Shown here piece by piece: positions 1,457-48,210 of a stretch of 48,210 bases of DNA. The notes beneath the pieces are model-generated. The model was not told the origin of the DNA. It saw only the letters and a program-made list of their open reading frames with translations, and searched no databases. The stretch is from a virus, in the IMG/VR virus record IMGVR_UViG_3300032144_000017, positions 1 to 48,210 of that record; one strand, 5' to 3'. A program made the translations under genes and the position numbers. Numbering within the stretch: the first letter of the stretch is position 1; each line of letters begins with the position of its first letter.

Positions 1457-1741
1457 TCAAAGTTCACGTGAGGCTCCCGCTTGTGGCTGCTGCGCAGCCG
1501 GTTGATCTTTGATGTTGTTGTGTGCAGCCTGCGCTGACTCGCACGTCATAAGCGTTGCGCGTTGAAGGTTGCGAAACCGTATTTCTACAGTGTCGCCAGC
1601 TTTAAGGTCACGCACGCTCATGTAGCGACCGGGTTGTGTGTAAGTATGGTTCTTGAAGTCCACACCCTTAACGAACGCAGCAATCGCGTCCGTGCTCTTG
1701 AGATAGTCTCTGCCGTAAGCAGGTCCAACGACGTAGTGCAT
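1457..1741 (-). CDS. hypothetical protein (94 aa)
   Basis: ORF track. Lies 6 nt downstream of the stop of 1747..1935. Confidence 0.5.
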   Translation of the reverse strand: MHYVVGPAYGRDYLKSTDAIAAFVKGVDFKNHTYTQPGRYMSVRDLKAGDTVEIRFRNLQRATLMTCESAQAAHNNIKDQPAAQQPQAGASREL

Positions 1742-2114: not shown

Positions 2115-2543
2115 CTCCTTCTTACCCTCTCTTAACTCCCAGCTCTTACACCAGCCTTCTTCTAATAACTCTATTCTCATTAAACCTACAAGATAATTAA
2201 CTGCATGTTCTTTACTATCAAACATAACCTCAAGCACATTACCATTGTCCTTACAAACAAGACAGTATGGTTTTTTACTACTGGCTTTTAAAACCAACGT
2301 ACGTCTATCTTCTAAATACTCTACAAGTTCTTTTCCGTTTTCTGCACTTAATATAAACTTAACCTCGCCAGCATCTGTTTCAATCAGTCCATAATACTGA
2401 ATAAATTGTTCTACATATTTACCGTATTGGTCTTTAACACAAAGACAAACTGGAAAATCGTGTTCCGTACATTCTAATAATGCTCGTTCAAGTAAATTAC
2501 CTAACACACTGTTTAAACCTTGCATTGTTAATTCCGTATTCAT
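2094..2543 (-). CDS. hypothetical early protein (149 aa), AT-rich island
   Basis: ORF track. Visibly AT-rich compared with flanking DNA. No motif recognised. Confidence 0.55.
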   Translation of the reverse strand: MNTELTMQGLNSVLGNLLERALLECTEHDFPVCLCVKDQYGKYVEQFIQYYGLIETDAGEVKFILSAENGKELVEYLEDRRTLVLKASSKKPYCLVCKDNGNVLEVMFDSKEHAVNYLVGLMRIELLEEGWCKSWELREGKKEDFIEFR

Positions 2544-3569: not shown

Positions 3570-3593
3570 ACTCTATCGAAATTCAATAAAGTC
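3570..3593 (+). promoter_or_regulatory. 24-bp palindromic motif, copy 2
   Basis: ACTCTATCGAAATTCAATAAAGTC. Lies 26 nt right of the right inverted-repeat arm, at the head of the rightward arm. Confidence 0.85.
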
Positions 3594-4507: not shown

Positions 4508-4653
4508 ATGCGCTTAAATGAAGGACCAGCAGCCAGTAATCTCAGCACCGCTCTCCCACGAACTGGCAACTGTCAGCACTGGCGTTAAGCGGTCGGTTAA
4601 GTTGGAGCCTCAACACTTGGCGAGAGCCAAATCAACACTAGGAAAGCTTTTTC

Positions 4654-5160
4654 ATGGTGGCAGAATTACAGAAACAGGCTGGCCAACCACAGTACGCAAA
4701 TCTGCTTAAGCTACTAAGCGTGGCCGGGCACGACACAATTAGTTATTGTGCGATCTGCTTTGCCATTGGACTGCCGAACGAATTAGTAGCTGAGCTGTTC
4801 GGCCTACTGCCGGAGGAGATCGAACTGTATAAGCGCTCGCCGCGTATTAGTGAGCTCTCCAACCAGATTCAGATTGCGCTTGGTATGAACCACGAGAAGC
4901 GTCTGGCGGCTGCCGTAAACCTGGCCATTGATACCAAGATGCACTTGTTGCGCAACGGCGACGACAAAATCAAGAATAATGTTTCGACTGAGGTCCTGGA
5001 CCGTAACTTCGGCAAGCCGCTACAGACCACGCAGAACATTAACGCGAATATCAACACGACGGTTACGAACGACGAGCTGGACCGCAGGTATAATATGACT
5101 GACAAACGTATTCAGCTACTTGAGGAAAAGCGCCAAAAACTACTGGGGTCCCTTAAGTAA
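4654..5160 (+). CDS. putative terminase small subunit (168 aa)
   Basis: Called on position only: immediately upstream of terL, appropriate size, helical and charged C-terminus. No SD sequence. Confidence 0.4.
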   Translation: MVAELQKQAGQPQYANLLKLLSVAGHDTISYCAICFAIGLPNELVAELFGLLPEEIELYKRSPRISELSNQIQIALGMNHEKRLAAAVNLAIDTKMHLLRNGDDKIKNNVSTEVLDRNFGKPLQTTQNINANINTTVTNDELDRRYNMTDKRIQLLEEKRQKLLGSLK

Positions 5161-5222
5161 CTGGCGCCGCAGGCGCAATAACGGGAGCCTCCGCGTTACT
5201 GTTCTCGACCTCATTCCTTTAG

Positions 5223-5246
5223 ACTCCATCGAAATTCGATAAAGTG
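5223..5246 (+). promoter_or_regulatory. 24-bp palindromic motif, copy 3
   Basis: ACTCCATCGAAATTCGATAAAGTG. The last three bases are the GTG start listed for terL. Confidence 0.9.
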
Positions 5247-7163: not shown

Positions 7164-9887
7164 ATGAGCCGTCGTCAAAAGATTATCTTCTTCAACACCG
7201 GCAACGGTGGTGGTCTGCCCGGCTCAGCAGACTGGGGACTAATCAGTGGCGATATTACTGACCAGAGTGATTTGAATGACGCTCTGGCACTGATTGGCGG
7301 CGCGGCACTGAATACGGGCGTCGGTAAGACGACGGACACGCTCGAGTTGCAGGCGTTGAATGACACGACGCTGCGCATCACAGCTGCACAGAACATGTTC
7401 TTTACTGAACTGTTCGCACCCGGTATGCCGTTCGATGAGGCAATGGTGAGCTTTCCTCAAACAGACTTTGCTCTTGCTGGTCTTGGACTGGTGGCGGACG
7501 GGACTTATATTCGGTACATTGGTTATGACGTAAATGGCGTTGTGCAAGTGGGCACCGCCAACTTCTTCATGAATCAAGGTGTGGCGCACCTTGGATTCGT
7601 AATGGTGAAGCGAGTTGGCGGTGTTACCACGTTCCTCGATGGAGCAGCTGGACCACGCAACGTACATAGTGCACCGATGATGGCGAGCAGCTCGTTGCTG
7701 GAGCGAGCGTACGCGACGAACCAGTCGAACGTCGAAGTGGCGCCTAACGCTGGTGGGATGACGTTTGCGAAGCGTGCTGGCGTCATGCGTTCACCAAGTG
7801 TAAACTGGCACGGTGGCGCCAACATACACGAGTTACAGATTGCGGCACAGACGCCGGCTTCCTTTACGCGTATCAATCCTAGTACGGCCTCGTCTCCTGC
7901 ACTGCCTGCTGCCAGTACCGCGTTTGTTTGTAATACGTGGTGGAACGGCGTTGCGAGTGTTGTAATGGCAGCACCTGGCAACGCTTCTGTGCAACGGTGG
8001 CTCATTGGTATTAAGGGCGGACTCTGGCTACAGGAGGGCGAGTTCCAATACACGAATCTGGCGGATGCCGTAGACAATATCTTCAACGCCCCGTTCACGA
8101 GCATCTATCCGTTTGACACGTATGCGGAAGTCGCACGGACCGCGGCTGTTCGTAGCTGTACGGACGTGGGTAATAACGCCCAGTCAGTTACGGTTGAGAC
8201 CGGTGGCACAGGTGCGGGTGGCGGCAGTTCGGGTGGTGCGTCTAACGTGTTTGCAGAGTCGCTGCTTGGTGTGACGATTGCACCGAACGTGGTGAATGCG
8301 TCGCTGAATAACATTACGCCGATTGGCGGCACACTAACAGTTACAGGTGGTGTTCGTGCAACTATTGGTGGAGATAGCATTACTGTCGGTGGACTTGGTG
8401 TTGGTTATTTAATTGAGTTTACTCGCGCTAATCCAAACTATTTTCGTGCAAGTTCTGCTGGTGGGATATTTGTTTTCGAGACGGGCGGCGCGAACGAGCG
8501 GGCGCGAATCACTGACACCGGACTCACGGTCACGGGCAGCAGCGCTACGGCACTCACCGGCTTCCCGTTCAGTGGCGGCTCGGCCATCGGGGCACAGATT
8601 ACGAGCTTTGCGTCTGGTGCTAGCTCTTACGGTTTGGACATGCGCCGATTCACCGGGTCCTCAACCGACCATCAGGTTGCTTACATTGGGCAGTATGATG
8701 CCGGGGGAGGCACGGGTTATCCCATCGGTTTTTTCTTCGACAACAACAAGACGACGAACACGCAGGCGACCACGCTGCGTGCGAGCATCGACCAGGACGG
8801 CCTCGCCGTCACGGGCGCGATCAGCGCGACGAACGGCGACATCCTGCAAACCGTAACCGGCGCAGACGCCGTGCTGCGGCAGACCTCAAGCGGCGGTTCG
8901 GGCCAGCAATGGTTTTTGGTTTCGCGCACGACCGGCGAATGGACTGTCTCCAATCAAAGTTTTTCGCGGCATCTGTCCGTTACCAATGCAGGGCTTGCGG
9001 TCTATTCATCGGGCACGGTGGTGGGGAATTTCACCTCAACCGGCCTCGCCGTCACGGGCGGGGTCACGGCGTCGGGCTCGATCACCTCCTCCGCTGCTCT
9101 CGGTACGGTGGACATCGTATCGACCACCCCGGCGAATCGCTCGATCACGAAATACACAAATGGCGGGGGCGACTATTTTATCGGTGTCAATAATGACACG
9201 GGCTCGAACTTTGGCGGCAGCGGCTACTCGCTGTTCCGATTCGCTCCGACCGGGCGCGTGATTCAGGACAATATCAACAGCGTCCCAATTACGACCGTTT
9301 CGTCCACCGGCCTCGCCGTCACGGGCACCGCTACCGCTTCCGATTTCATCATGGCTGGCGGCGAGTCGTTCGGCTTGACGAACTCAATGCTTGGCGTGGC
9401 CTTCACCGGCCCCGCATACGGGTTTTCCATCCGAAACCTAAACGACGTTTCTGGCGCGAAACTCGCCGCTTTCCGCAAGGGAGACGGGACCGAAATCGGC
9501 TCGATTTCTCGCGTCGGCACGACCGACGCCGTCGCCTACAACACAAGCAGCGATGCCCGCCTAAAGAAGAACGTGCGCGACTACACCGGCACCGATTCCG
9601 GCCCAATCATCGACGCGCTGCGTCCACGCTGGTTCGATTGGAAAGAGGGCACTGATAATGATTCCAAAAACATTATTGGCTTCATTGCACAAGAAGAGTT
9701 CCTCGCTGCACCGGAGTTGGCACGTATTGGTGCTGTCACGCCTGGCGACGATAAACCTGACTTTGACCCGAAGACCGGACGTGGTTGGATGCGCTCTGAC
9801 ACCGCGCTGGTTCCTATCCTAGTAGCCGAGCTTAAATCCTTACGTGTGCGACTGGCGACGGCTGAGTCCAAGCTGGCGACTCTCTAA
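7164..9887 (+). CDS. tail fibre/spike with C-terminal intramolecular chaperone (peptidase S74-like) domain
   Basis: Gly/Ser/Thr-rich body with a recurring (T)GLAVTG motif. The C-terminus, SSDARLKKNVRDY...IIGFIAQEE, matches the S-D-x-R-x-K signature of auto-cleaving endosialidase-type chaperone domains. Confidence 0.8.
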   Translation: MSRRQKIIFFNTGNGGGLPGSADWGLISGDITDQSDLNDALALIGGAALNTGVGKTTDTLELQALNDTTLRITAAQNMFFTELFAPGMPFDEAMVSFPQTDFALAGLGLVADGTYIRYIGYDVNGVVQVGTANFFMNQGVAHLGFVMVKRVGGVTTFLDGAAGPRNVHSAPMMASSSLLERAYATNQSNVEVAPNAGGMTFAKRAGVMRSPSVNWHGGANIHELQIAAQTPASFTRINPSTASSPALPAASTAFVCNTWWNGVASVVMAAPGNASVQRWLIGIKGGLWLQEGEFQYTNLADAVDNIFNAPFTSIYPFDTYAEVARTAAVRSCTDVGNNAQSVTVETGGTGAGGGSSGGASNVFAESLLGVTIAPNVVNASLNNITPIGGTLTVTGGVRATIGGDSITVGGLGVGYLIEFTRANPNYFRASSAGGIFVFETGGANERARITDTGLTVTGSSATALTGFPFSGGSAIGAQITSFASGASSYGLDMRRFTGSSTDHQVAYIGQYDAGGGTGYPIGFFFDNNKTTNTQATTLRASIDQDGLAVTGAISATNGDILQTVTGADAVLRQTSSGGSGQQWFLVSRTTGEWTVSNQSFSRHLSVTNAGLAVYSSGTVVGNFTSTGLAVTGGVTASGSITSSAALGTVDIVSTTPANRSITKYTNGGGDYFIGVNNDTGSNFGGSGYSLFRFAPTGRVIQDNINSVPITTVSSTGLAVTGTATASDFIMAGGESFGLTNSMLGVAFTGPAYGFSIRNLNDVSGAKLAAFRKGDGTEIGSISRVGTTDAVAYNTSSDARLKKNVRDYTGTDSGPIIDALRPRWFDWKEGTDNDSKNIIGFIAQEEFLAAPELARIGAVTPGDDKPDFDPKTGRGWMRSDTALVPILVAELKSLRVRLATAESKLATL
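8799..9326 (+). repeat. Three exact copies of the 18-mer GGCCTCGCCGTCACGGGC inside the fibre gene
   Basis: Copies at 8799..8816, 9042..9059 and 9309..9326, spaced 243 and 267 nt apart and in frame. Each encodes GLAVTG. Confidence 0.9.
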
Positions 9888-9911
9888 ACTCCATCGAATT
9901 TCGATAAAGTA
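9888..9911 (+). promoter_or_regulatory. 24-bp palindromic motif, copy 4
   Basis: ACTCCATCGAATTTCGATAAAGTA. Starts on the base after the fibre TAA stop. Confidence 0.9.
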
Positions 9912-10250
9912 ATAAACCTCCCTTTATGAACAACCAACCTAACTTCATTCCACAATCCTACACAGAACGAGCTGCCGCTATACAGCACAACATTGACGTT
10001 GCTCGTGAGCAGGCGATGCGCACTGGCAAGACAGTTCAAGTCTACATTCCACCCAGCACACCCGACATGCGCCAGCACACTCCACCCGCCGGTGTTTCTG
10101 GGTCTTAGACGGATCGGCCGCCGGAGGCGGTCTCGGTTCACGACGTCAGTTGGGCAGCCCACGGGTCTGGCGACTCCCGCTGCGGGTTGGTTCGGGACGA
10201 GTGAGGCGCGGCGAGCGAAGCGAGCGACGCGCCGAGCGAGAGTGAAAAAC
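9911..10250 (+). repeat. GC-rich non-coding element A
   Basis: Shares a 25-nt block with element C (AGACGGATCGGCCGCCGGAGGCGG vs AGACGGATTGGACGCCGGAGGCGC) and a 57-60-nt 3' block with element B (GGACGAG.GAG.CGC..GCGAGCG.AGCGAGC..GCGC.GAGCGAGA..GAAAAC). Hairpins are CCGCC-GGA-GGCGG (10118..10130) and GGCGCG-N17-CGCGCC (10205..10233). Confidence 0.7.
9926..10108 (+). CDS. doubtful small ORF (60 aa) inside element A
   Basis: ORF track. It overlaps sequence homologous to non-coding element C, so coding status is uncertain. Confidence 0.25.
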   Translation: MNNQPNFIPQSYTERAAAIQHNIDVAREQAMRTGKTVQVYIPPSTPDMRQHTPPAGVSGS

Positions 10251-10493
10251 ATGAAATATTTACTAAGATTAATCAACTGGTTCAAGAGCCTCTTTCGCAA
10301 ACAGGTTCCGCCAGTAGTCACACCAACAGTTGAACCAACTACTGAGGTTTTTCCACGAACCATTGGTATGGTCTATGTTGGTCGTCGTATGAATGAAAAG
10401 CTTGTTAGTACTCACCATAACCGCAACAGTCATAATCGTCGTATTCCTACTGCTGAGGTTTCTGGCTTACTTTGTTTAAACCGTCACAAATAA
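10251..10493 (+). CDS. hypothetical protein (80 aa)
   Basis: The ATG at 10251 follows directly after the GAAAAAC end of element A. The track ORF 9993..10493 has an Arg-rich, junk-like N-terminal extension across the element. Confidence 0.5.
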   Translation: MKYLLRLINWFKSLFRKQVPPVVTPTVEPTTEVFPRTIGMVYVGRRMNEKLVSTHHNRNSHNRRIPTAEVSGLLCLNRHK

Positions 10494-16124: not shown

Positions 16125-16148
16125 ACTTTATCGAATTTCCATAAAGTC
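16125..16148 (+). promoter_or_regulatory. 24-bp palindromic motif, copy 5
   Basis: ACTTTATCGAATTTCCATAAAGTC, directly abutting the ATG at 16149. Confidence 0.9.
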
Positions 16149-22195: not shown

Positions 22196-22219
22196 ACTTC
22201 ATCGAAATTCAATAAAGTC
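22196..22219 (+). promoter_or_regulatory. 24-bp palindromic motif, copy 6
   Basis: TAA TAA ACTTCATCGAAATTCAATAAAGTC ATG. It fills the whole gap between the stop and the next start. Confidence 0.9.
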
Positions 22220-23602: not shown

Positions 23603-26600
23603 ATGCCTCTCACATCCGACCTTTTTAGGGTTAAACAGTACAGGTCTATCAATCCTGAACTGGCTGATATCTCCGACAGGGATTTAGCCGACATTGTTTA
23701 TCAACAAACCGGTGAACTTGGGTCACTTCGTGACTCGAGCGCGCTTGGCCGTACGGTTGCGAGAGGCTCTAACTTTCTAACGAGCACAGGTGAAAGCTTG
23801 GAGCGTGGTATTACGAACACGCTTGGTGACTCATATCCGGCTCGTCTTGGTGCTCGTACTGCAAACATTGCACTGCAAAGCACCCCGGAGTACTTGATGA
23901 ACCTGGCTGCTGCTCGCGTACTGCCTCAGTCAAAGCTTGGTGCTGTTGGTATTGGTGCACTTAACGCGTTCACAGGTTATGGTCGGACAGCAGTAGAAAC
24001 TGGTGACCAATCTGCTGCACTTGGAGCAGGTGCTGGTACTGTGGCTAGCATGATTGGTGCACTCACGGGTGCTAAACTTGGTAACAAGTTTGGTGGTAAG
24101 ATTGGTGGTGCTGCTGGCGGTTTCATTGGTAGTATGCCCGGTGATGCACTGGAGATTGCTACGCAACCGGGTGGTTGGGAGGAGTTTCTTAAGGATCCTC
24201 TCAACCTGCCTGCTACCCTCCTTTCACAAGCACCGTACGCGGCTGTGGATCATTTTGTCGCCAAAGGTGAAGCTGCTAAGGAGAATCGTGAGAAGACGAT
24301 TGCTGCAACACCGGCGCTTGACGAGATCAGTGGGCAGAGCATTCAACAGGAACTGATTGGTTTGAAGAAAACACCTGTGTCACAACTGAGCGAACAGAAG
24401 GCTGCACGTATGAGTGAGCTTGAGGCGTTGTTGAAGAAGACCGACGCACAGGTTATGACGAAGGACGGTAAGCAGATACAGAAGGTAGCAGGAGCGGTTG
24501 AACACCCGCTTACGGCTTCACCGTTTTCATACATGTCCCAGATTGCCAACGTCTCGTGGGGCAAGCGACCTGCTATGTTTGTGCCTAAGGGCTCACTACC
24601 GGAGCTCGAGACTGTGCCGTTTGCTATGCAGGGTTTCAAGACGTACGAGACACCGGATGGTGACTGGCTGTACAATCCTGCCTTCACGTCTGAGCAAGCC
24701 ATCAAAGACTCAGTGGCTAAAGGCGACACCAACGGTATTCTTGGTCTTGGGCCTACTGGCAAGAACGACCAAAGCATGGGTGTCGTGGGTGTGTTGCGTA
24801 ATCGTCAAGGATTGGAAAAGCTTGGTGTGGAGCTCGAGTACCAGACGAAGCAGTCCATGCTTAAACGGTTGCAGGGCATGGCACTTAAGGGTGACACTGT
24901 TACTGTTGAGCCGCTTGCTGACTTCCTCAAGAAGCGTGAGAAGCAAAAAGGTACGGTTGCGCTTTACTCTCTTGAACAGCAGGGCACTCCCGAACAGAAA
25001 GAGGTCACACGCAAGTTCTGGCAAAACTCCTTACTGAAGAAGTTCCAGAGTGCGCTGTTGCCAACTGAACGGAAGGGTGCACGCTTTGAACTGGACGCTA
25101 ACGGCGAACTGGGTAACGCCGGTGTCGTTAAGGCTATGCGCCAGTGGGTGCCGCCTGCGATGATGGAACATTATGAGGCCTCTGGACTACAAAATTTCTT
25201 AGACTTTAATCGGACTGAATCCGACATTAAAGCTTACAATGCTGTACAGGAACAAATTCAACTTCGCAAGAAGGAGTTTGGTACACCTGAATTTAACAAG
25301 ATTTGGGCTGAAAACGAACGCATCAAGAACAAGTACAAGGGCTACGTTCCCACCACTTCATCGAAATCCGATAAAGTCTCGTTTGCTGCTCTCTCGGACT
25401 GGCTTGAACAAAACACTCCGCAGATTGAGATTAAACAGCTTAATCCGAACGCGTTTAAAGACGCGAATAGTCAAAGGCTTGCTCAGTTACAGCATACACT
25501 TGAGACGGCTGGCTACCGTGTTGAACAGGACATGGAAGGAAACCCAGAGATTAGTTATTCTGGTGAGCCAGTTACGGAACCAGCTGATTTTGATCGTTTG
25601 AATATCCCGCAAGCAGACCGGGATTTGATCAATAGTTTTTGGCGCTCACAAATCGTTGGTTTTGAGATTGGAACTGATGCAGCGACTGGCAAGTATGGCG
25701 TTGAACCTATCAACGTTAATGAGATGGACAGTCCGGTGGATATCCTTGTTCGTGTTCCTACACGTCAACTTACTTACGACGAGATTCACCAAGGCGCTGA
25801 CTACGGTCCGGAAACGAATAAACAACTAAGAGCCGACTATGAACGAGAGGCTGCTGCCAATAACATCAAGCGTACTCCTGACTTGTTTTCAGGTCCGCAC
25901 TTTGGTGACTCTGACCTAAACGTTCTTGCCAGTGTTCGTGGTTACTTTAAGAACCTGCCCACAGGAGAGCGTGCGTTCTTTCCGTTCGAAGTACAGAGTG
26001 ACTGGGCACAAGGTTTTCAGGGTCAGCAAAAACGACTGGATGAAATGAAGGCTCGTTTTACGCTTCGTCAGAACGAGGATAAAACTTATAGTATTTTTGA
26101 TAAGGAATACAATTACGATGGTCGTAAGTTTGCTGATAAAGCTGAAGCACAGGCGCGCTATGAGACTATCCTTGGTGCAGAGTCTGGTTATGGTCGTCGT
26201 AACATTGAGACCATAAAGAACCACGCATTGCTTTCTTCGTATGAAACGCTTGCTGTAAAGGCTGCAATTCAACACGCACTTGCGAATGGTGCCACCAAAA
26301 TCGTGTTCCCTGATTCAAAGACTGCAATGATGATCGAGGGTCATGATAAGCGTCCCCGCAGTATTGCGAATAGCTTTGAGAACTTGCTTGACCGTAAACC
26401 AAGTGTCGGTGACTGGGTTATGCAGGGTGGTCCTTACAGTGGTGGGCAAATCGTAAGCACACAAGCTGCTGCACAGGATATTGCAAGAAGCTACGAACGT
26501 TACAACGGTGCTGCTGCGCAGACCTCCATACGTCAGCTCACAGCTGCTGACTTTATTACGGAAGACCCTCGTCAAACAAAGGGTATGCGGCAGCACTACG

Positions 26601-29600
26601 ACAACAGCATCCCGGGCATTGTCTCGCGTCTTACCAATGACTCTGGCAAGCAGGTAGACATGGGTGTTTTCACCGCACGTACAGCCAGTGAACACTTTAA
26701 GAATCCTGACGGTACACCGAAGGACCGCATCACCGGGCGAGTATACGACCTGTCTAACCTCAAGCCAGACGTTGAGAATCTGTTTGCCATGTACGGACAG
26801 CCTGACCAAGCGAACTATGCAGAGGGCCTCAAGCACGCAGAGACGGAGCTCGAAAAACGCATCCACGAAGGCGCTGACGTGACGAGCGAAGAGTTGATGG
26901 ATGCGCTTAGTCGGGGTGAAAACGTCGACAAAGCGATTGCCCTCAACTACCTTAAAGGTCTGTTGGGCAACGTCGACAAAGTGCGCGCGTTCCTATCTGA
27001 CCCGGTGAGTGGTATTAACATCCTTGGCCGTACGGTAGGAACGGAGGTTGCACTCAACCTCAAACAGAAGAACGAGAAAGCCTTCGGTATTCTTGGTCAC
27101 GAGCTGTCACACGTTTCAGCACACCTACTCGAATACGGTAACCCGGAGGCCTACAAAGACTTTATTTCGTACCCGACGGTGCATATGACGGCTGAGACAC
27201 GTAAGATGGCCCTTGAAGAACTGTACAAAGCAGCCGGTATTGAGGCTAAAGACCTCGACTACGCTGCTGGTCTCAAGTTTAACAAGGACGACCCAAACCT
27301 GGCGAAGAAGCAGGCACTGGAATTTTACGGTGCACTGGCGGAAGTGCTGTCTACGCAGGTGTTTCGCGACTCGGGTATTAATCCGACCATAAAGAAGTAC
27401 CTGTCGTGGCTGCCGATGGGCGCACAAAGGTGGCTAACTACTCTGTCGGCTCAGTTTACCAAATTCATGGGTGGTCAGACGCCGTCGCTTCGTTACATGC
27501 TGGATGCAGAGTCTCAAAAGCTTGTAACCGACGCGTATTCGAAGCTGGTCAAATTTACGCATCAGACTCAGACTTCGCAGAACACAGCGATTAAGTCGTT
27601 GAAGCGTTTGGGCCTATACGATGAGCAAGAGTTCATCAGTAACCTGGCGAACTTCAATGACCGTGATCGCTGGGGTCCTGCAGAGCGTTCAGCGCGTGCT
27701 ATGGGCGACATGGCCAACTACGCGTTGGATTTCACTCGCGCTAGTCAGTTTGCTAAAAAGAGCGGTGACGTGTTTGAAGACTGGGTAATGAGTCCGCTCT
27801 TCCGCACGAAGCTACACCCCGAAACGCTCGACTTCTTCCGCGAACTACACCACTACCGTAACAAGATCAAGCAGTACGAACACGGTTACATGGCTTACCT
27901 GGGTCAGAACGCTGACGGTACACGGAGCCAAGAGCAAGCACTACAGGCGGCAGACGACCACATTCAGAGCTTGATTCGTCCTGGCAAAGGACGCAATGAC
28001 CGGTTGCTTGCCATGTCGAAGGTGATTGCCCGTAATCAAGAGATTCGTGAGAACGTGACGAATCCTCCACTAGGGGCGCAAGCCGGACCACAAAAATTCG
28101 TGACTAAGGATCAACTCGTCTCTGTTGAAGAGATGAAGACGAAGTACGGCCTGTCTGAGCAAGACGCAGACTTCCTGAATCGCTTGATTGACTTGCCGAA
28201 ACAAGTGTCTGAACAGACGCTTCGTTTCATGCAGGCTACCGACACTGTTAACATGTCCAAACTGTTCTACATCCAGAACCGGGATATGAACATTAGTGCA
28301 GTTAAGGGTAAGGTCGCTGAACTTACGCGTATTTCGAACGACGCTGGTGCGAATTCGTTGGAGAACAAGATGTACCAGAAGTACCACGAGCAAATCGCGC
28401 AACGTTCTGGCGATAACACAGACACGCTTAACCGGCTGTCGGCTGAGATCGCCATGACTGAGCAGCGCAAACTCGCGTTTAATCAACAGATGGAACTGCA
28501 CATTCGCCAGGCGTTTGCGAATGAGATTCAGTTTGATCCTCGTCCCGGCCAGGACCCGTTTATCAACCAGGTCACGGCTGCTGCTACCCGTCTGGCGGAA
28601 GCACGGGCTGAACAAGCGTTTATCATGAAAGACGAGGGTTATGCTCCCATGACACGTCGGGGACGCTACCTTGTGCAAGTCTACAAGGACGCACTTGGAA
28701 CGCCACTACCGAATACGGTACAGTCCATGCAAGGCTTTAAGACCTTGCAAGAGGCTCGCGCGTTCATGGCAGCTAACAAGCTTACGGATGGCAAGGACTC
28801 CAAACTAATCGACAAAGAGACGTTTGTGGCCCGCGCTCAAATGTACTCGAGCCAGCAGCTCCAGAGTGTACGGGATAAGGCACGGAGGGACTTCGACGAC
28901 GTTATTCGCGCGTACGAGAAGAACCTGCCTGACTCTCCCCACAAGGCTGCTCAGCTCCAGGTCTTAAGCGACATGAAGAACCAGTACAGGCCCTTACAGC
29001 AGGAAATTAGCGAAGTCATTAGTGCTAAGGGCGACAAGTTCAAGGAGCGCCGGTACAATGTTGAAGGCTTCAACGAGCTGGACTTCATCCCAAACATCTT
29101 CGAATACGTCAACTATAAGACCATCGTTGGTCAAAAGGGTCTGACGCGTGCAGAGGCTGAACTCCAAACGCTACGGCCTACTGTCCAGTCTGATCCTGCT
29201 ATGCAGGCACGGATGGCGAAGGAGACCGACTACGTTTTGAATCATACGAGCGAGGCAGCCGGTATACGCAAGTTGGTGTTCTACAACTACCTTGGTGGCA
29301 GCGTGCGACACATGATCCAGAACTTGCTGCAAGTACCGTTAAACGGTATCCCCGAAATGTTTGCGCAAGGCGCCGGGCACCACTCGTACAGTCACGCTGT
29401 AAAAGCTGGTTACTTGGCCACGAAGTATATGAAGGACGGTACTACCGGTAATAAGAACTTCGATATACTCCTCAAACAGGCAGAGAAAGAGGGCGTTACT
29501 ATCCCGAACGCTATTGAGCACTTTGCACCTGAATCGAGTGCGATGGAAGGTGCACTAGACAACGTGAACGCACAGATGAATGGCACCAAACAGCTGGGTG

Positions 29601-31090
29601 AGCGTGTTAACTACGCTGGCACCCAAGTGTACAAGGGCTTCGAGAAGTTCATGCGCGCGACGGCTACTGCTTCAGAGCGTACCAATCGCCAAGTTTCGTT
29701 TATTATGAGCCTGCTCGAGTCGGAGCGCAAGGGCAGCACGGATCTTCGCAAGATGTACAATGATGCGAACGTCTTCACCGATTATGTCAACTTCGTAGGT
29801 GATAAGAGCAACCGACCTGGTTTTCAGGTTAAGTTGGGGCAGTCGTGGGCGCACGCACCTATGCTTGTCGCCACAGCATTGCAGAGCTTCGTGATCAACC
29901 ACATTAGCCAACTTTACGCTTACGGTAAGATGGCTATGAAAGGCGACATAAACGCCAAAAAGGCGTTTGCTACGGGGACAGTCCATCTTCTGGCGATGGC
30001 TGGTGCGATGGGTCTTCCATTTGCACAGAACGCGGAGCAGTTGTTTGAAGCAGCCACGGGTATTTCGCTAAAAGAAGCGATACGCCGTAAGCTAATTCTT
30101 GGTGCGCAAGAGCTGTTCGATCTGGATGCAAACAACGGAGGTCGTATTGCTGACACAGTGATGTCAGGTTTTCCACGTCTGCTTGGTATTGAAGCAGGGC
30201 AGTCTGTGGGCCTTGGAGATCCACTGTTCCGTGTAGAAGCTGGTAAAGTACCTTCAGCATACGACCTTGCTGGACCAGCAGGGGGACTAGCTGAAAAAGC
30301 CGTTCAAGGTCTAGACGCACTAACCGCGAATCCGTGGGATGGAGAGAGCTGGTGGAAGGCGACTCGGACTGTAGCGCCGCAAGCCTTGAACTACTGGCTA
30401 AAACTTTCCGACGCTCTAATGAAAGGTGGGTACTATGACAAGGGTGGTGCCCCTCTTGTGGAGAACCTGGATTCGAGTGCGAGTGTGTCATTGTTGGGTG
30501 GGTTTACGCCTACAGAGGTTTCTGATGTTCGGACTGTACAAAATCTTCGCCGAAAAGTGAATGAGAAAATTGATCGCGACTATAGTACGGCGGTTGATTT
30601 GACTGCGAAGGCTCTTCTAAACTATGAGCGGACTCAACGGGTTGAGGATCTGATGGAAGCAAACAAGCGCTTCGGTGATTACATTGAAGCGGCTGCTGGT
30701 ACACAGGATCGCGGGACGATGGTGACGTCTGTTTCAAATCGAGTAGAGCAACTTAAGAGTGCTGTTGAGGTTGCGCCGAGTCTGCGGGAGAGTCAGGCTT
30801 TTTCAGAAGCTCGGACATCTTACCCCGGAACAGTACCCCGTTATTCCGAACGACTTCCCGCAGCGTTTTCTGAGCTAAAAGTTGCTCGGTCACTGGGTCA
30901 AGACGATATTCTTCTCCAGAAACTAGGCGGTCTGAAGTCTTCTCTGATACAAAAGGCACTGTACGACCAGCTAGTTCGAGTAGGTTTCGAGCCTTATCAG
31001 GCTTCGCAGATTGCACAGGGCGGCAAATCGGCGGTCCAGAAAACGATTCGGACTTCCAACTTATCCTCCCCTGTTCCTCTAGAACCTTAA
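23603..31090 (+). CDS. giant virion-associated multidomain protein (2495 aa)
   Basis: One uninterrupted ORF. N-terminal glycine-zipper hydrophobic segment (GAVGIGALNAF...GGKIGGAAGGFIG). HExxH zincin motif HELSH at 27098..27112. Gly-rich hydrophobic C-terminal segments with a GDPLFRV motif, which as I recall resembles PLxRFG-type phage proteins. Confidence 0.8.
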   Translation: MPLTSDLFRVKQYRSINPELADISDRDLADIVYQQTGELGSLRDSSALGRTVARGSNFLTSTGESLERGITNTLGDSYPARLGARTANIALQSTPEYLMNLAAARVLPQSKLGAVGIGALNAFTGYGRTAVETGDQSAALGAGAGTVASMIGALTGAKLGNKFGGKIGGAAGGFIGSMPGDALEIATQPGGWEEFLKDPLNLPATLLSQAPYAAVDHFVAKGEAAKENREKTIAATPALDEISGQSIQQELIGLKKTPVSQLSEQKAARMSELEALLKKTDAQVMTKDGKQIQKVAGAVEHPLTASPFSYMSQIANVSWGKRPAMFVPKGSLPELETVPFAMQGFKTYETPDGDWLYNPAFTSEQAIKDSVAKGDTNGILGLGPTGKNDQSMGVVGVLRNRQGLEKLGVELEYQTKQSMLKRLQGMALKGDTVTVEPLADFLKKREKQKGTVALYSLEQQGTPEQKEVTRKFWQNSLLKKFQSALLPTERKGARFELDANGELGNAGVVKAMRQWVPPAMMEHYEASGLQNFLDFNRTESDIKAYNAVQEQIQLRKKEFGTPEFNKIWAENERIKNKYKGYVPTTSSKSDKVSFAALSDWLEQNTPQIEIKQLNPNAFKDANSQRLAQLQHTLETAGYRVEQDMEGNPEISYSGEPVTEPADFDRLNIPQADRDLINSFWRSQIVGFEIGTDAATGKYGVEPINVNEMDSPVDILVRVPTRQLTYDEIHQGADYGPETNKQLRADYEREAAANNIKRTPDLFSGPHFGDSDLNVLASVRGYFKNLPTGERAFFPFEVQSDWAQGFQGQQKRLDEMKARFTLRQNEDKTYSIFDKEYNYDGRKFADKAEAQARYETILGAESGYGRRNIETIKNHALLSSYETLAVKAAIQHALANGATKIVFPDSKTAMMIEGHDKRPRSIANSFENLLDRKPSVGDWVMQGGPYSGGQIVSTQAAAQDIARSYERYNGAAAQTSIRQLTAADFITEDPRQTKGMRQHYDNSIPGIVSRLTNDSGKQVDMGVFTARTASEHFKNPDGTPKDRITGRVYDLSNLKPDVENLFAMYGQPDQANYAEGLKHAETELEKRIHEGADVTSEELMDALSRGENVDKAIALNYLKGLLGNVDKVRAFLSDPVSGINILGRTVGTEVALNLKQKNEKAFGILGHELSHVSAHLLEYGNPEAYKDFISYPTVHMTAETRKMALEELYKAAGIEAKDLDYAAGLKFNKDDPNLAKKQALEFYGALAEVLSTQVFRDSGINPTIKKYLSWLPMGAQRWLTTLSAQFTKFMGGQTPSLRYMLDAESQKLVTDAYSKLVKFTHQTQTSQNTAIKSLKRLGLYDEQEFISNLANFNDRDRWGPAERSARAMGDMANYALDFTRASQFAKKSGDVFEDWVMSPLFRTKLHPETLDFFRELHHYRNKIKQYEHGYMAYLGQNADGTRSQEQALQAADDHIQSLIRPGKGRNDRLLAMSKVIARNQEIRENVTNPPLGAQAGPQKFVTKDQLVSVEEMKTKYGLSEQDADFLNRLIDLPKQVSEQTLRFMQATDTVNMSKLFYIQNRDMNISAVKGKVAELTRISNDAGANSLENKMYQKYHEQIAQRSGDNTDTLNRLSAEIAMTEQRKLAFNQQMELHIRQAFANEIQFDPRPGQDPFINQVTAAATRLAEARAEQAFIMKDEGYAPMTRRGRYLVQVYKDALGTPLPNTVQSMQGFKTLQEARAFMAANKLTDGKDSKLIDKETFVARAQMYSSQQLQSVRDKARRDFDDVIRAYEKNLPDSPHKAAQLQVLSDMKNQYRPLQQEISEVISAKGDKFKERRYNVEGFNELDFIPNIFEYVNYKTIVGQKGLTRAEAELQTLRPTVQSDPAMQARMAKETDYVLNHTSEAAGIRKLVFYNYLGGSVRHMIQNLLQVPLNGIPEMFAQGAGHHSYSHAVKAGYLATKYMKDGTTGNKNFDILLKQAEKEGVTIPNAIEHFAPESSAMEGALDNVNAQMNGTKQLGERVNYAGTQVYKGFEKFMRATATASERTNRQVSFIMSLLESERKGSTDLRKMYNDANVFTDYVNFVGDKSNRPGFQVKLGQSWAHAPMLVATALQSFVINHISQLYAYGKMAMKGDINAKKAFATGTVHLLAMAGAMGLPFAQNAEQLFEAATGISLKEAIRRKLILGAQELFDLDANNGGRIADTVMSGFPRLLGIEAGQSVGLGDPLFRVEAGKVPSAYDLAGPAGGLAEKAVQGLDALTANPWDGESWWKATRTVAPQALNYWLKLSDALMKGGYYDKGGAPLVENLDSSASVSLLGGFTPTEVSDVRTVQNLRRKVNEKIDRDYSTAVDLTAKALLNYERTQRVEDLMEANKRFGDYIEAAAGTQDRGTMVTSVSNRVEQLKSAVEVAPSLRESQAFSEARTSYPGTVPRYSERLPAAFSELKVARSLGQDDILLQKLGGLKSSLIQKALYDQLVRVGFEPYQASQIAQGGKSAVQKTIRTSNLSSPVPLEP
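25355..25378 (+). promoter_or_regulatory. 24-bp palindromic motif, copy 7 (inside the giant gene, in frame)
   Basis: ACT TCA TCG AAA TCC GAT AAA GTC encodes TSSKSDKV at codons 585-592. Confidence 0.85.
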
Positions 31091-32180
31091 CAACCTCCTC
31101 AAGCTCCATCTTGTTGATGTCGTCATAGATACCGGAGTTTAGGATGTCTTGCATCGTGCAAGTGCCCCGGCCGGTGATGTAGTTAAAGACGCGCGTTAGA
31201 AACGACTTGAGTTCGTTGCGGCCTACATCACCGAAGACCTGTTCCAACGAGCGTTCGGACTCGTCCAGGAAAGCCATAGCTAGACGGAGGATAGCCGTGT
31301 CCACGATACGATCATTTCTTGTGGCTGCGCTCATGCACATACAGATCTTAAGCAGGAGCACGTGTTTGGAGGAGAAGTACGTCTTGACTTTGTCGGAGAA
31401 CTTCTCACCCTTCAAACGAAACGTAGGGTAGATCTTAATGTAAAGATCTTTTGCGTCATCGGTGAGGAAGAACTTTCCACCGAGCTTGTGAATACGTTCA
31501 ATTTGGTGCTTGATTACGGGCAGAAGTTTGGCTTCTTCCTCGTGTAACTCAGGCCAGGCCACAGCGTTTTCGATCTCGTTCTCCAGCACGAAAATTGTGC
31601 GGCGTGCGAACCCGTCACTGATGACGTTCTGCTTGAGGTTTGAGTTCATCCAGTTCGGCGTACAACAACCAAGTAAAGTAAAGTAAGGATTCGTAATGGA
31701 GACGACACCGCCTTTGCGCGTGCGCTCTTTGTATTCAATACGATCCCAGATGGCAGTAAGGAACATCACCATCTGGTGGTTGATGTGTTTACCACCAAGG
31801 AATTCATGCAGCTCACTGACGAAAGCAGTGGCTTGACTGTAGACGACCTCTTTACCGCCCACCTTAGCGGCGACTTTGTTAGCAGCCATGTCGTCGATGA
31901 GAGACTCACGAGTGGCCGAGTCAGGCGCACGAGGGATGTTGATAAGACTTAAAAGGTTCCCCGCGGTATCCATTGCGGTTGTTTTACGGGAACCCGCGTC
32001 CCCAACCAATACGATGTAAAGGTTGGGGAACACGGTAAAGTGCCCTTGTGGGATAAAGCACTTTTTGCCGAGTGCAGCACTAATCATAGCGATTAGTGAC
32101 CAGGCATGGAAGTTAGCTGGAGGCTCCGACCGTTTAGTGAATGAGTGGTAGAGCTTGAATAGATTTGGTGTTTCTTCCAT
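30753..32180 (-). CDS. P-loop NTPase, DUF3987/VirE-like (putative replicative helicase)
   Basis: Beta-strand plus Walker A (NLYIVLVGDAGSRKTT) and the acidic motif AFVSELHEF. Sits in the replication block. Its last 112 codons overlap the giant gene in antisense. Confidence 0.6.
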   Translation of the reverse strand: MEETPNLFKLYHSFTKRSEPPANFHAWSLIAMISAALGKKCFIPQGHFTVFPNLYIVLVGDAGSRKTTAMDTAGNLLSLINIPRAPDSATRESLIDDMAANKVAAKVGGKEVVYSQATAFVSELHEFLGGKHINHQMVMFLTAIWDRIEYKERTRKGGVVSITNPYFTLLGCCTPNWMNSNLKQNVISDGFARRTIFVLENEIENAVAWPELHEEEAKLLPVIKHQIERIHKLGGKFFLTDDAKDLYIKIYPTFRLKGEKFSDKVKTYFSSKHVLLLKICMCMSAATRNDRIVDTAILRLAMAFLDESERSLEQVFGDVGRNELKSFLTRVFNYITGRGTCTMQDILNSGIYDDINKMELEEVVKVLEEQGRISWKSESFSGPPICRPVQSAKPDKARNLLELAGRTVPFVSEKTSDRLVSGEEYRLDPVTEQLLAQKTLREVVRNNGVLFRGKMSELLKKPDSPADSAQPQQHS

Positions 32181-32187: not shown

Positions 32188-32211
32188 GACTTTATCGAAT
32201 TTCAATAATGT
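32188..32211 (-). promoter_or_regulatory. 24-bp palindromic motif, copy 8
   Basis: The - strand reads TAA ACATTATTGAAATTCGATAAAGTC tccagac ATG. The motif begins on the base after the exonuclease stop and ends 7 nt before the next start. Confidence 0.85.
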
Positions 32212-36054: not shown

Positions 36055-36219
36055 TTATTTAGACTCCTTAAACATGTACGGTGCAGGTATAGCATTTTTA
36101 ATAACACTGCGTGGATAACCTACAACATGCTCTGCTTTGGTCCTGTCTGGCTTCTTCTCTCCAAAACTACGAGGCTGTTTAGTGCGATCAGAATAGATAG
36201 AGTTCGGATTAAGTTTCAT
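36055..36219 (-). CDS. small ORF (54 aa) not on the track
   Basis: Hand-translated: MKLNPNSIYSDRTKQPRSFGEKKPDRTKAEHVVGYPRSVIKNAIPAPYMFKESK. The ATG follows the 3' end of element B, and the stop is 1 nt before the polymerase ATG. Confidence 0.4.
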   Translation of the reverse strand: MKLNPNSIYSDRTKQPRSFGEKKPDRTKAEHVVGYPRSVIKNAIPAPYMFKESK

Positions 36220-36443
36220 AATTTTACTTTTTATTTGTTTTCGTCTCGCTCGCGCCTAGCTCGCTACGCTCGCTGGCGCTCCCTCGTCCGGACACGCTTC
36301 GCGCACCATAGGCATGCGCGCGTCCGTCCTGCTACCCGCACCGGACAAGCCGGTGCTAGCCATGCGTTGTGCCTCCGGCACCCGAACCCTGCTGTCGATC
36401 CGATCAAACCGGCTGAGTGAGTGTGCATGGAGTGAGTGGTTGG
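36220..36443 (-). repeat. GC-rich non-coding element B
   Basis: The - strand carries GTGCC-GGA-GGCAC (36369..36381) and a 57-nt 3' block (36237..36293) about 80 percent identical to element A 10191..10250. Hairpin GCGCC-N18-GGCGC. Confidence 0.7.
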
Positions 36444-36467
36444 ACTATATCGAATTTCGATAAAGTC
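36443..36467 (-). promoter_or_regulatory. 24-bp palindromic motif, copy 9
   Basis: The - strand reads TG[A]CTTTATCGAAATTCGATATAGTC. The stop of the small ORF 36466..36636 overlaps its first base. Confidence 0.85.
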
Positions 36468-37965: not shown

Positions 37966-39459
37966 TTAAAGAGGTAGTTCGGAGAGCAAGCCCTCGCTTA
38001 CGCCCTTCTTACCGAGGCGTTCTTGGATGTAGTTGAGTCCGTTGGCGATGTGAGTCTCGTCGATCTCAATACCGAAGGGAACCCTCTTACGTTTAAACGC
38101 TTGTGCGAGGAACGAACCCTCTCCTGCGAACGGGTCGATGATGATGTCGCCTTCTTGAGAGACAGAGTCGATGAGGTAATCCCACACTTCTGGCGGCTTC
38201 ACAAACGGGTGGCTAGCCGAGCTTACGCTGTCGCAGCAAATCCAGTTCTTGTTCTGTTTGGTGCGGAGGATGCTCTTCTCCGACTTCCGCATAATCATGC
38301 AGACTTCGGTGGCTTTGGTAATGTTGTACTGAGCTTGACTGTTTGAGCAGGGGCTGGTCTTGCACCACACGAGTGGCCAGCGAGTAACACGCCAACCGAT
38401 TTTGCCTGCCCAGTCTTGGAGCTTTTCTTGATGGTCCAGGTCGTACCACATGCACAGGAAACCGTCTTCTGCGACGTTGTCGAAGGCAACACGAAGGAAG
38501 TCTTGCAGCAGTGACATGTTACCAGCCACTTGGTGGGTGTCTTCAATACGCTCGATCTTGCCTGGTGCTGCTGATAGGTTGTCAGTATTGATTCCATAAG
38601 GCGGATCACAGATGATGTGAGAGATTTTACCAGAGCTGGCGATCTGCGGTATTAGCTTTAAGCAATCACCGTGGTAGTAGAGTTTAGAAATGTCGGTAAC
38701 AGAAAGCAAAGGCTGGTCGCGCTTGGCCGCAGGAAGGTTAATCTTTATCGGATCTACTGTGGTGACAGTAACAGTGGCGGCAGCGAGGTCCACGTTCTTA
38801 GCCGTGAGCGCACGCTTAGAGTTGATGCGAGACAACTGTTCCTTTGCAGCTTCGTCGCGCTCTCCAGCCACCAACAGTTGAACGGCCTCAAACATGCTCG
38901 AGGCCTTCCACAAAGCAGAGTCCTTGTTCTTGACCATGTGCTTCGCCACTTTAATGGCGGTCGAGACGCTGCTTTGCGGCACACCAAGAATCTCCGAGGT
39001 TGCATCTTGTGACCAACGTAAATGATCTGTGAGTGCTTCTTTGGTCGCCAGCCGGTGGTAGTCTACAATGCCAAACATGTTCTCCTGCCAAGTCATACTC
39101 TTGCGTTTGAGGTTCTCGTCAAGCTCCAACATCCGGCGCTTCGCGGGAGACAAAGACTCGAGTTCGGTTACAGGGATGATGCTATAATACTGAGAATACG
39201 GCATACTGTCGCCATTTGGCATCGTCACGACTTTATCTAATTTCGATAAAGTATTAAAAGAAGCAAAGCGTCGGCCTCCGGCAACCAGATTGTTATTAGC
39301 ATCAATTACTACTGGATGCATGAGCCCGCGTGTTGAGGCGAGGTCGACCTGATTACGCTCGATACTATCTATTAGTAGTTCGAGTTCGCTCATGTCTTTG
39401 CGCAGACGCTCTTGGTCTACAACGATGTCAGTTAGCTTTCGGTAGTTTAGGTTGTTCAT
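37966..39459 (-). CDS. ParB-like N-terminal domain fused to an N6/N4 DNA methyltransferase
   Basis: ParB box GLMHPVVI...LVAGGRR. Methyltransferase motif IV DPPYG and AdoMet motif IIIDPFAGEGS. Confidence 0.8.
   Translation of the reverse strand: MNNLNYRKLTDIVVDQERLRKDMSELELLIDSIERNQVDLASTRGLMHPVVIDANNNLVAGGRRFASFNTLSKLDKVVTMPNGDSMPYSQYYSIIPVTELESLSPAKRRMLELDENLKRKSMTWQENMFGIVDYHRLATKEALTDHLRWSQDATSEILGVPQSSVSTAIKVAKHMVKNKDSALWKASSMFEAVQLLVAGERDEAAKEQLSRINSKRALTAKNVDLAAATVTVTTVDPIKINLPAAKRDQPLLSVTDISKLYYHGDCLKLIPQIASSGKISHIICDPPYGINTDNLSAAPGKIERIEDTHQVAGNMSLLQDFLRVAFDNVAEDGFLCMWYDLDHQEKLQDWAGKIGWRVTRWPLVWCKTSPCSNSQAQYNITKATEVCMIMRKSEKSILRTKQNKNWICCDSVSSASHPFVKPPEVWDYLIDSVSQEGDIIIDPFAGEGSFLAQAFKRKRVPFGIEIDETHIANGLNYIQERLGKKGVSEGLLSELPL
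39229..39252 (-). promoter_or_regulatory. 24-bp palindromic motif, copy 10 (inside the ParB-methyltransferase gene, in frame)
   Basis: ACT TTA TCG AAA TTA GAT AAA GTC encodes TLSKLDKV at codons 70-77, followed by GTG ACG ATG. Confidence 0.85.
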
Positions 39460-43308: not shown

Positions 43309-43332
43309 AACTTTATCGAATTTCGATGGAGT
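43309..43332 (-). promoter_or_regulatory. 24-bp palindromic motif, copy 11
   Basis: The - strand reads TAA tt ACTCCATCGAAATTCGATAAAGTT, then 12 nt, then the ATG of the nuclease gene. Confidence 0.9.
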
Positions 43333-47728: not shown

Positions 47729-47753
47729 GACTTTATCGAATTTCGATAAAGTA
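47729..47753. promoter_or_regulatory. 24-bp palindromic motif, copy 12 (only perfectly symmetric copy)
   Basis: ACTTTATCGAA-T-TTCGATAAAGT has perfect 11-bp arms. It matches the consensus when read on either strand. Confidence 0.9.
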
Positions 47754-48083: not shown

Positions 48084-48210
48084 CATAACTAAAAAGCCGC
48101 CCACAATTAAGTGGACGGCTGTTAAGAGCGTGAACACACGCGGTGGCGTTCGCTACGCGAGTTACGGTTAGAGAATGGACTCAACCTCTTCTCCACGCAG
48201 CTTGGGCTCC
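48084..48210. repeat. Terminal direct repeat, copy 2 (identical to 1..127)
   Basis: Exact 127-bp match to the start of the window. It contains the 3' end of CDS 85..405 and a second copy of the terminator hairpin (48091..48120). Confidence 0.95.

Follow-up and report, generated by a model that had tools for sequence, protein, structure and literature searches.

The promoters of the virion RNA polymerase of phage N4 are hairpins with stems of 5-7 bp, GGA or GAA triloops and the GC-rich heptamer GCGGAGC (PMC4496689, PMC13037366), and primase signals such as ssiA of RSF1010 contain the sequence CCGAAGG (PMC13037366). Triloops of the C-GNA-G type are of exceptional stability as DNA but far less stable as RNA (PMC13037366). 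In T4-type phages, the short conserved intergenic motifs called PeSLs are repeated along the genome and flank non-essential small genes, and it is there that indels and replacements concentrate (PMC2839356). Here we analyze three GC-rich intergenic elements, A, B and C, which share features with these systems and lie in a viral genome recovered from metagenomic data, the IMG/VR record IMGVR_UViG_3300032144_000017 (hereafter the window, meaning the whole stretch of 48,210 nt). An earlier note, made from the letters of the window alone, had singled out these elements and proposed that they form a conserved structure.

Three Related Non-coding Elements

A, B and C form a real family of related, non-coding and strand-specific elements, of which the genome has exactly three: A at about 10086-10250 on the plus strand, B at 36237-36413 on the minus strand and C at 47862-48083 on the plus strand. 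The 3′ block that the earlier note had seen in both A and B is clearly common to them, with a local alignment score of 53 against 17.9 ± 2.6 in shuffled sequences; the 5′ block of A and C around the GGA hairpin scores 40 (shuffles 18.8 ± 2.7), and the alignment of B with C scores 26, a value matched by 2 of 300 shuffles. C can be aligned in the plus orientation only and is thus antisense to both neighbouring genes. Together with the element of a relative (L169), the three constitute family I, in which pairwise z-scores range from 6.7 to 12.8 except for B and C (z 2.5). Searching 263 kb of clade DNA with a covariance model built on the 5′ block of family I retrieves A, B, C and the elements of L169 and a further relative, L223 (E-values of 1e-18 to 1e-25), and no others. 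A looser group comprises inserts of L231, L238 and L235 (pairwise z 2.5-4.0); its similarity to family I is not significant and the family-I model sees just a bare hairpin in it, so that the two groups have a common architecture, not a demonstrable ancestry, and the homology of these inserts to A, B and C is not demonstrated.

The window corresponds to a circularly assembled, complete podophage genome with a true length of 48,083 bp; positions 48084-48210 are identical to positions 1-127, a 127-nt overlap from circular assembly, and element C consequently ends at the circular junction. The cores of the elements have 66-70% GC against 50.1% for the genome. Three GC-rich stretches had originally been described as starting right after a copy of a palindrome. 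The palindrome copies and the contrast in GC hold, but the GC-rich cores begin 25-190 nt past the palindrome, and the tail-fibre gene (8470-9537) contains GC-rich islands comparable to the elements. The extent of A also had to be revised, for the stretch 9911-10250 previously taken as non-coding includes an open reading frame (ORF) of 60 aa (9926-10108, plus strand), which forms the first part of cassette A and is coding, as L169 has a homologue with 41% identity at the corresponding place of its own cassette; the non-coding element is therefore confined to about 10086-10250, with the last ~25 nt of the ORF overlapping the start of its conserved 5′ block. (Other homologues of the 60-aa protein were not found by a word-index search, and an exhaustive search of 1.84e9 representative proteins returned two spurious matches to repeat proteins.)

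Element A begins with the conserved 5′ block or family-I core (10086-10154, plus strand; covariance model match at 10088-10154, 66.1 bits), which contains hairpin 1, GGCCGCC-GGA-GGCGGTC, at 10116-10132, and ends with the 3′ block common with B (TTCGGGACGAG...GAGCGAGAGTGAAAAAC, 10191-10250), in which hairpin 2 (GGCGCG/CGCGCC, 10205-10233) encloses a 17-nt loop of GCGA repeats including GCGAAGC; the stem of hairpin 2 is retained in the centroid fold. The 3′ block runs up to the ATG AAA start of an 80-aa ORF (10251-10493, plus strand), which is possibly coding, matches no PHROG and is not called by the JGI gene caller in L162, another assembly of this phage. Element B, on the minus strand, has its 5′ block at 36350-36413 (62.0 bits) with hairpin 1, GTGCC-GGA-GGCAC, at 36369-36381, an extra hairpin GGTGCGC-GAA-GCGTGTC with outer G-T pairs at 36291-36307, and the 3′ block at 36237-36293, containing hairpin 2 (GCGCC...GGCGC, 36252-36279, with GCGTAGC in the loop). 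It is followed by a 54-aa ORF, also starting with ATG AAA (36055-36219, minus strand), which is located immediately 5′ of the DNA polymerase gene and is missing from the relatives L006 and L007. The block had been said to end shortly before an ATG AAA start, which is true of A directly, but the gap in B amounts to 17 and not 21 nt. Element C (plus strand, 80.9 bits) has its conserved core at 47862-47927 and contains hairpin 1, CGCC-GGA-GGCG, at 47894-47904, a hairpin GCATCGG-CTGG-CCGATGC at 47926-47943 and, after GGGGACGAG, a hairpin GCGCCCG-TTG-CGGGCGC at 47989-48005. It is bounded by the intrinsic terminator of the upstream minus-strand gene (48095-48120, minus strand), and the plus-strand stretch that precedes its core (47752-47861) is non-conserved and unalignable with the orthologous locus of L223.

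The spacer between GCCGGT and GCCGGAGG measures 26 nt in A, 28 in B and 27 in C, lengths whose differences are not multiples of three and thus indicate non-coding DNA; B and C also retain the nucleotides GGTTTGA in different registers. Long ORFs opposite each element translate to Arg-rich strings of low complexity. We therefore rejected a coding status of the elements, given that their indels are not multiples of three and that the antisense ORFs look spurious, as expected of GC-rich DNA with few stops.

Hairpin Arrays and Paired Changes

The elements have a common design, in which short hairpins are arrayed along a single strand; their GC stems measure 5-7 bp and are closed by C-G, their triloops are mostly GGA or GAA (also GCA), and CGAG, ACGAG and AGCGA motifs are interspersed between them. 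Besides the hairpins of A, B and C described above, this design is seen in L169 (GCGCC-GGA-GGCGC and GCGGGCC-GCA-GGCCCGC), L231 (GCCGCC-GAA-GGCGGC and GCTGC-GAA-GCAGC), L238 (GCGGCGC-GGA-GCGCCGC and GGCGCGC-GGA-GCGCGCC) and L235 (GCGCC-GAA-GGCGC). Hairpins with a GNA triloop and at least five Watson-Crick pairs occur 9 times in 1,450 nt of element sequence, compared with 0.11 ± 0.36 in 500 dinucleotide shuffles (maximum 3); in 241 kb of clade DNA we counted 16 hairpins of this class, 9 of which lie within elements. The linear motifs are strand-specific, with sense to antisense counts of 22:4 for CGAG, 8:0 for ACGAG and 8:0 for AGCGA.

The local hairpins are maintained through paired changes. 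The GGA hairpins read as the earlier note had given them (CCGCC/GGCGG in A, GTGCC/GGCAC in B, CGCC/GGCG in C), and so does its second hairpin (GGCGCG..CGCGCC in A vs. GCGCC..GGCGC in B). The covariation that it took as evidence of a conserved structure would be thin with these three copies alone, but it is sustained at the level of local hairpins: the GCC-GNA-GGC class (seven hairpins from five phages) reaches a covariation score of 0.293, attained by 1 of 500 shuffles (0.083 ± 0.051), with slid controls at or below 0.083. The three inner pairs of this class are invariant, and positions 4-6 from the loop vary on both sides. A second hairpin follows the (G)ACGAG motif, with stems that are mutually unrelated between copies (GGCGCG/CGCGCC in A, GCGCC/GGCGC in B, GCGCCCG/CGGGCGC in C, GCGCCGC/GCGGCGC in L169 and GCTGC/GCAGC in L231); in A and B its loops are the GCGA repeats with GCGAAGC and GCGTAGC, respectively. 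A global fold does not emerge from the data, for the minimum free energy (MFE) of the whole elements is no better than that of dinucleotide shuffles (z +1.43, -1.19 and -1.59 for the three elements), and the conserved part thus consists of short hairpins and linear motifs of the CGAG type. We considered GC skew of the R-loop type as well and rejected it as a common property, the values being +0.09 to +0.22 in family I and negative in L231, L238 and L235.

With respect to the genes that follow, the GNA loops lie on the sense strand at four of five independent junctions, corresponding to six of seven elements (A, B, L169, L231, L235 and L238); in these six, the last hairpin lies 17-50 nt before the ATG.

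Variable Placement among Relatives

No close relative of the window was found among GenBank phages (best portal identity 28%), and scans of IMG/VR with portal and polymerase peptides retrieved none; metagenome assemblies contain roughly 190 related portal and polymerase proteins. The loci compared here were fetched through homologues of the polymerase and portal, together with one pattern scan of JGI metagenomes. Their comparison indicates that the elements are accessory and mobile, behaving as optional inserts between the palindromic motif and the next start codon at junctions that vary among relatives.

The close relative L223 has an orthologue of C at the same junction, its contig stopping inside the element. 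The C core (about 47868-47972) shows 4 differences in about 105 nt, that is 96% identity, all outside the stems; the neighbouring gene is about 85% identical, and the 105 nt past the palindrome cannot be aligned. In L169, which derives from the same metagenome as L223, the motif is followed by an ORF of 51 aa, a homologue of the 60-aa ORF, and then by an element of family I, and this cassette sits at another junction, past the capsid operon, which is empty in the window. Conversely, L007 (82% polymerase identity) has the motif followed by the polymerase gene, without B and the 54-aa ORF, L006 (83%) has neither motif nor B upstream of the polymerase gene, and L163 (78% portal identity) has a holin and an 87-aa gene in place of cassette A. 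(L006 and L007 also contain, at 987-1110 and 4533-4660, respectively, a different non-coding stretch of ~130 nt past the ligase gene, sharing GCYCTAGAAGGCC; this stretch does not occur in the window, whose ligase gene has a stop codon overlapping the start of the gene that follows.)

GC-rich hairpin inserts of an analogous kind occur in more distant relatives, at the portal junction in L231/L232 and at the post-capsid junction in L238 and L235. At the latter junction, a gene for a GIY-YIG homing endonuclease lies directly behind the motif in L233 (10734-11066) and L237 (11113-11427), and another ORF, of 152 aa, is found in L236 (11118-11576). The slot is the same one that bears hairpin elements in L169, L235 and L238. 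Two independent JGI contigs break within elements: position 1 of L162 corresponds to about 10077 of the window, in A, and position 1 of L223 to about 47972, in C, which suggests either population heterogeneity or poor coverage and assembly across GC-rich hairpins.

The Palindromic Motif

The palindrome CTTTATCGAAWTTCGATAAAG has 12 sites in the window against 0.41 expected (2092-2112, 3571-3591, 5224-5244, 9889-9909, 16126-16146, 22197-22217, 25356-25376, 32190-32210, 36445-36465, 39231-39251, 43311-43331 and 47731-47751). Three of these copies precede the elements: 9889-9909, reading CTCCATCGAATTTCGATAAAG, before cassette A; 36445-36465 before B; and 47731-47751 between a 104-aa gene on the minus strand and element C on the plus strand. 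The motif, of 21 nt, is present also in L007, L163, L169, L223, L231, L233, L235, L238 and L310; in the relatives its outer arms, CTTTAT...ATAAAGT, are conserved around a variable centre (CTTTAT-N9-ATAAAGT). In gene orientation it reads CTYYATCGAAWTTCGATAAAGT, with an ATG 0-30 nt downstream and often the stop codon of the preceding gene right before it, and it frequently comes so close to the ATG as to leave no room for a Shine-Dalgarno sequence. The centre is asymmetric in L310 (CTTTATCAAAAACATATAAAG) and the motif flips there with gene orientation, which identifies it as a directional signal linked to gene starts. Neither spacing nor a scan revealed a promoter of the sigma-70 type at the motif, which could be a promoter for an unrecognised polymerase producing near-leaderless mRNAs, or a start signal at the RNA level. 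Because the palindrome is nearly perfect in this phage, it could work both ways at element C. Two copies of the motif are situated within ORFs, in the giant gene considered below and in a long methyltransferase ORF.

Database Searches

The earlier note had recognised no known RNA family, and our searches agree: Rfam 15 gave no match over the whole window at gathering score and none to the element cores at E ≤ 10, the permissive filters on the three regions producing matches only at E ≥ 0.039, far below gathering score and off these cores; and ARAGORN found 0 tRNA or tmRNA genes. Of the searches that had been suggested, those with covariance models proved fruitful within the clade, as reported above. 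BLASTN found no match among GenBank phages for any of the three elements (A being searched together with its flanks), and none among PLSDB plasmids for C. No element copies were found outside the clade in GTDB genomes, IMG/VR or JGI metagenomes, and within the searched data the family is restricted to a single clade of podophages, which are uncultivated and have a portal of the SU10 type.

Several pattern matches were examined and discarded. The A/B 3′-block pattern (GGACGAG..GCGAGCGNAGCGAGC) produced, in GTDB, nothing but chance matches in high-GC genomes, and in IMG/VR a single contig of a CRESS-type virus (L009), judged a low-complexity coincidence. This contig is a circle of 2.4 kb with Rep and capsid genes, in which an intergenic AGCGA-rich block (GGACGAGCGAGCGACAGCGAGCGCAGCGAGCGGAGCGGAGCGAGA; 2290-2370, minus strand) has a GCGCAGC mini-hairpin; the block is probably a coincidence of AGCGA repeats. 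The 5′-block pattern had 31 chance matches in IMG/VR and 71 matches in GTDB genomes, none with the clade motif, and the palindrome pattern hit five unrelated contigs in IMG/VR.

Possible Functions of the Elements

Our tentative preference, with a probability of roughly one in three (0.35), is that the elements are accessory mobile cassettes transcribed as structured 5′-proximal RNA, which would serve in cis as stabiliser, insulator or protein platform. In this reading, the motif would mark the start of a transcription or processing unit and the element would be the 5′-proximal, highly structured portion of that RNA, coming behind a short ORF in A and L169; C would be a stand-alone transcript, divergent from the palindromic motif and running to the terminator hairpin. 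The array of RNA hairpins might then work as a barrier to ribonucleases, as an expression insulator or as a binding platform for a regulator, and the element would move with small accessory genes as a self-contained cassette. This interpretation is supported by the co-oriented gene strings, the sense orientation at four of five junctions, the proximity of the element ends to the ATG (17-50 nt) and the association with small ORFs that travel along; it is also in line with the directionality of the motif, which shares the orientation of the genes in L310 and precedes ATGs by 0-30 nt. Several observations weigh against an RNA leader. The main one is the bias for C-GNA-G loops, which points to single-stranded DNA rather than RNA. 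Further, C is antisense to both adjacent genes, no sigma-70-like promoter was detected at the motif or the elements, the MFE of whole elements is no better than in shuffles, and L162 has TGA in place of GGA in the loop of A hairpin 1; moreover, any generalisation across family I and the L231/L238/L235 group rests on analogy. The view that the elements are leaders of the downstream small ORFs, on which the earlier note had based a reporter experiment, is not proven, since in relatives a portal or tail-module gene comes next and C is not followed by any gene on the same strand.

A possible but doubtful alternative is that we are dealing with selfish, non-autonomous hairpin DNA devoid of any phage function, which would pass from one motif/start-codon junction to another by recombination, by homing associated with adjacent nucleases or with the help of a single-strand transposase that recognises hairpins and is supplied in trans. 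The presence or absence of the elements at differing junctions in close relatives is what such DNA would produce, as are the occupation of one post-capsid junction by a GIY-YIG gene (L233 and L237) or another ORF (L236), the strand specificity of the hairpins, which single-strand transposases use, and the mosaic of C, where a 96% identical core, 105 unalignable nt and an 85% identical gene look like recent lateral exchange; the breaks of the L162 and L223 assemblies inside elements are compatible with population polymorphism. Yet filled and empty sites show no terminal inverted repeats, target duplications or sharp ends, a scan of part of the ORFs revealed no transposase or RAYT-like gene, no copies were found outside the clade in the GTDB, IMG/VR and JGI data, and there are just three copies per genome. 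It is very improbable that the elements are decaying GC-rich foreign coding DNA, that is pseudogenes, or functionless compositional drift. The long spurious ORFs on the opposite strand of each element, the similar ends of the 60-aa ORF, a B frame and a C frame (..H-T-x-x-A-G..) and the non-significant MFE of whole elements could be taken in this sense; decay is contradicted by indels that are not multiples of three, by GNA hairpins ~80-fold more frequent than in shuffles, by the covariation of stems, by the strand specificity of motifs and by a C core that is better conserved than the adjacent gene.

The C-GGA/GAA-G hairpins might instead be signals at the DNA level, extruding as mini-hairpins from supercoiled or replicating DNA and serving a phage enzyme as N4-type hairpin promoters or primase signals; the reader would be an unrecognised polymerase in the orphan protein of the virion module, or the primase. 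We regard this as unlikely, in spite of a geometry that coincides with that of N4 promoters (stem of 5-7 bp, 3-nt GGA/GAA loop, GC-rich heptamer) and of the presence of GCGGAGC, GCGAAGC or GCGTAGC in L238, L231b, B-HPx and the loops of A and B. The clade does have a primase and an orphan protein of 2,100-2,600 aa at the end of the virion module, and at C an N4-like start would run into the minus-strand block of replication genes, just past the terminator. The orientation, however, is wrong at most loci, because the GNA hairpin of N4 belongs to the template strand and transcripts started accordingly would here be antisense to the upstream genes at six of seven elements, only C fitting; there is no A-run or conserved context from -17 to +1, the 5′ flanks being GGATCGG, GTTCGG, ACGAG and GCGCA, and the elements are dispensable in close relatives. 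The giant protein itself (2,495 aa; 23603-31090, plus strand) belongs to a clade-wide set of orphan proteins of 2,100-2,600 aa, encoded also in L008 (15044-22439), L007 (9660-14540) and L310 (13604-19981), with an invariant, HExxH-like G-H-E-x-S-H at residues 1165-1170 and a highly conserved C-terminal part of 1,600 aa. Sequence searches gave no support for an RNA polymerase of the N4 or crAss-like type in this protein: it has no match in Pfam, PHROG or PDB, whether searched as a single sequence or as a 3-sequence profile, and none with the polymerase motifs searched as regular expressions. Quite improbable, too, is a role as sites of processive antitermination, similar to lambda nut or HK022 put, where RNA hairpins near the promoter would alter the elongating polymerase and let it pass the terminators further down. 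The order motif, small ORF and hairpin (A and L169), or motif and hairpin (B and C), does resemble pR-cro-nutR and pL-nutL, several copies per genome each head a gene block, and canonical intrinsic terminators are present in the genome; against this, no common boxA-like motif is found, the loops are triloops and not GNRA-like pentaloops, the elements are missing from close relatives in which gene order and terminators are unchanged, and the post-capsid element lies downstream of a terminator, not upstream.

If the elements act as RNA, as we favour, they would represent an undescribed class of portable structured leaders and could show how small accessory genes that land in a tightly packed phage genome are expressed or insulated. 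If they act as DNA, the rare recognition of mini-hairpins known from N4 promoters and primase signals would be extended to a new phage clade, providing a function for the orphan giant virion protein and a second, independent lineage of hairpin-dependent initiation outside N4-like phages, borne on portable cassettes. Either way, the clade-wide motif of 21 nt at start codons and its variable cargo of hairpin arrays, small ORFs and GIY-YIG genes offer a natural system for studying the acceptance of insertions.

Other Features of the Genome

The genome encodes an SU10-type portal, a major capsid protein, a family-A DNA polymerase, a ligase, a methyltransferase, a PD-(D/E)XK nuclease and a primase. 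The primase ORF (30753-32180, minus strand) overlaps convergently, by its 3′ end, the 3′ end of the giant plus-strand ORF over about 338 nt (30753-31090); its PHROG match covers residues 7-357 of 475 only, and the ORF may be over-extended or frameshifted. The cumulative GC skew is lowest near 21.5 kb and peaks at the 48/0-kb junction, where element C lies; it does not track gene orientation, which switches at about 31 kb and 3.4 kb. Two further sites, 5164-5195 (plus strand) and 1465-1499 (minus strand), have the GCA-triloop hairpins GCGCC-GCA-GGCGC and GGCTGC-GCA-GCAGCC, in both cases with CGGGAGCCTC about 5 nt after; one is intergenic, just upstream of the motif that precedes the large terminase gene, and the other coincides with the 3′ end of a minus-strand ORF. 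These hairpins with CGGGAGCCTC may be a further small repeat.

Comparison with Known Systems

The promoters of N4 and DNA mini-hairpins in general have in common with the elements a GC stem, a GGA or GAA loop, the C-G closing pair, heptamers of the GCGGAGC/GCGAAGC form and strand specificity. They differ in having the opposite orientation relative to the genes at most loci and other conserved flanking bases, and no virion RNA polymerase can be recognised here; N4 promoters are moreover grouped at that end of the genome which enters the cell first, whereas the elements are dispersed and dispensable. Lambda nut sites are defined by boxA plus boxB, and HK022 put sites by a fold of two hairpins ahead of terminators. 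The resemblance to these sites, for which we know of no model in Rfam, lies in the promoter-proximal location of hairpin elements, several per genome and one behind a small first ORF; the elements differ by the lack of boxA, another type of loop and their dispensability in relatives, and there is no evidence for an N-like protein.

REP/BIME sequences and elements derived from IS200/IS605 are likewise GC-rich imperfect intergenic palindromes, strand-specific, non-coding and variable between close relatives, and REP elements stabilise the upstream mRNA. REP/BIME are defined by many copies in the host chromosome and by RAYT; here we find three copies per genome, no tetranucleotide of the GTAG type and no RAYT/TnpA gene among the proteins scanned, and the searches of GTDB genomes found no copies in clade context. 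Elements derived from IS200/IS605 have subterminal hairpins at both ends and a fixed target tetra- or pentanucleotide, without target duplication. In L231 and L238, hairpins lie near both ends with CGAG adjoining, though the comparison of filled and empty sites does not define where the elements end.

PeSLs provide the parallel for the motif, since CTTTAT-N9-ATAAAGT plays their role here, with variable cargo behind it, and as a repeated motif bounds indels and replacements between related phages. PeSLs, however, combine a sigma-70 promoter with a terminator hairpin, and the present loci have neither a sigma-70-like site nor a U-tract after the hairpins, no intrinsic terminator (GC-rich hairpin followed by a T-run) being detected inside the elements; furthermore, the GC-rich elements are the cargo and not the motif, which stands on one side of the inserts only. 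On the defining features tested, no described family fits A, B and C; the nearest concept is that of repeated hairpin elements between genes and of mobile regulatory cassettes in phages, and what is new in them is the array of GNA-triloop hairpins and its placement behind a clade-wide motif that abuts start codons.

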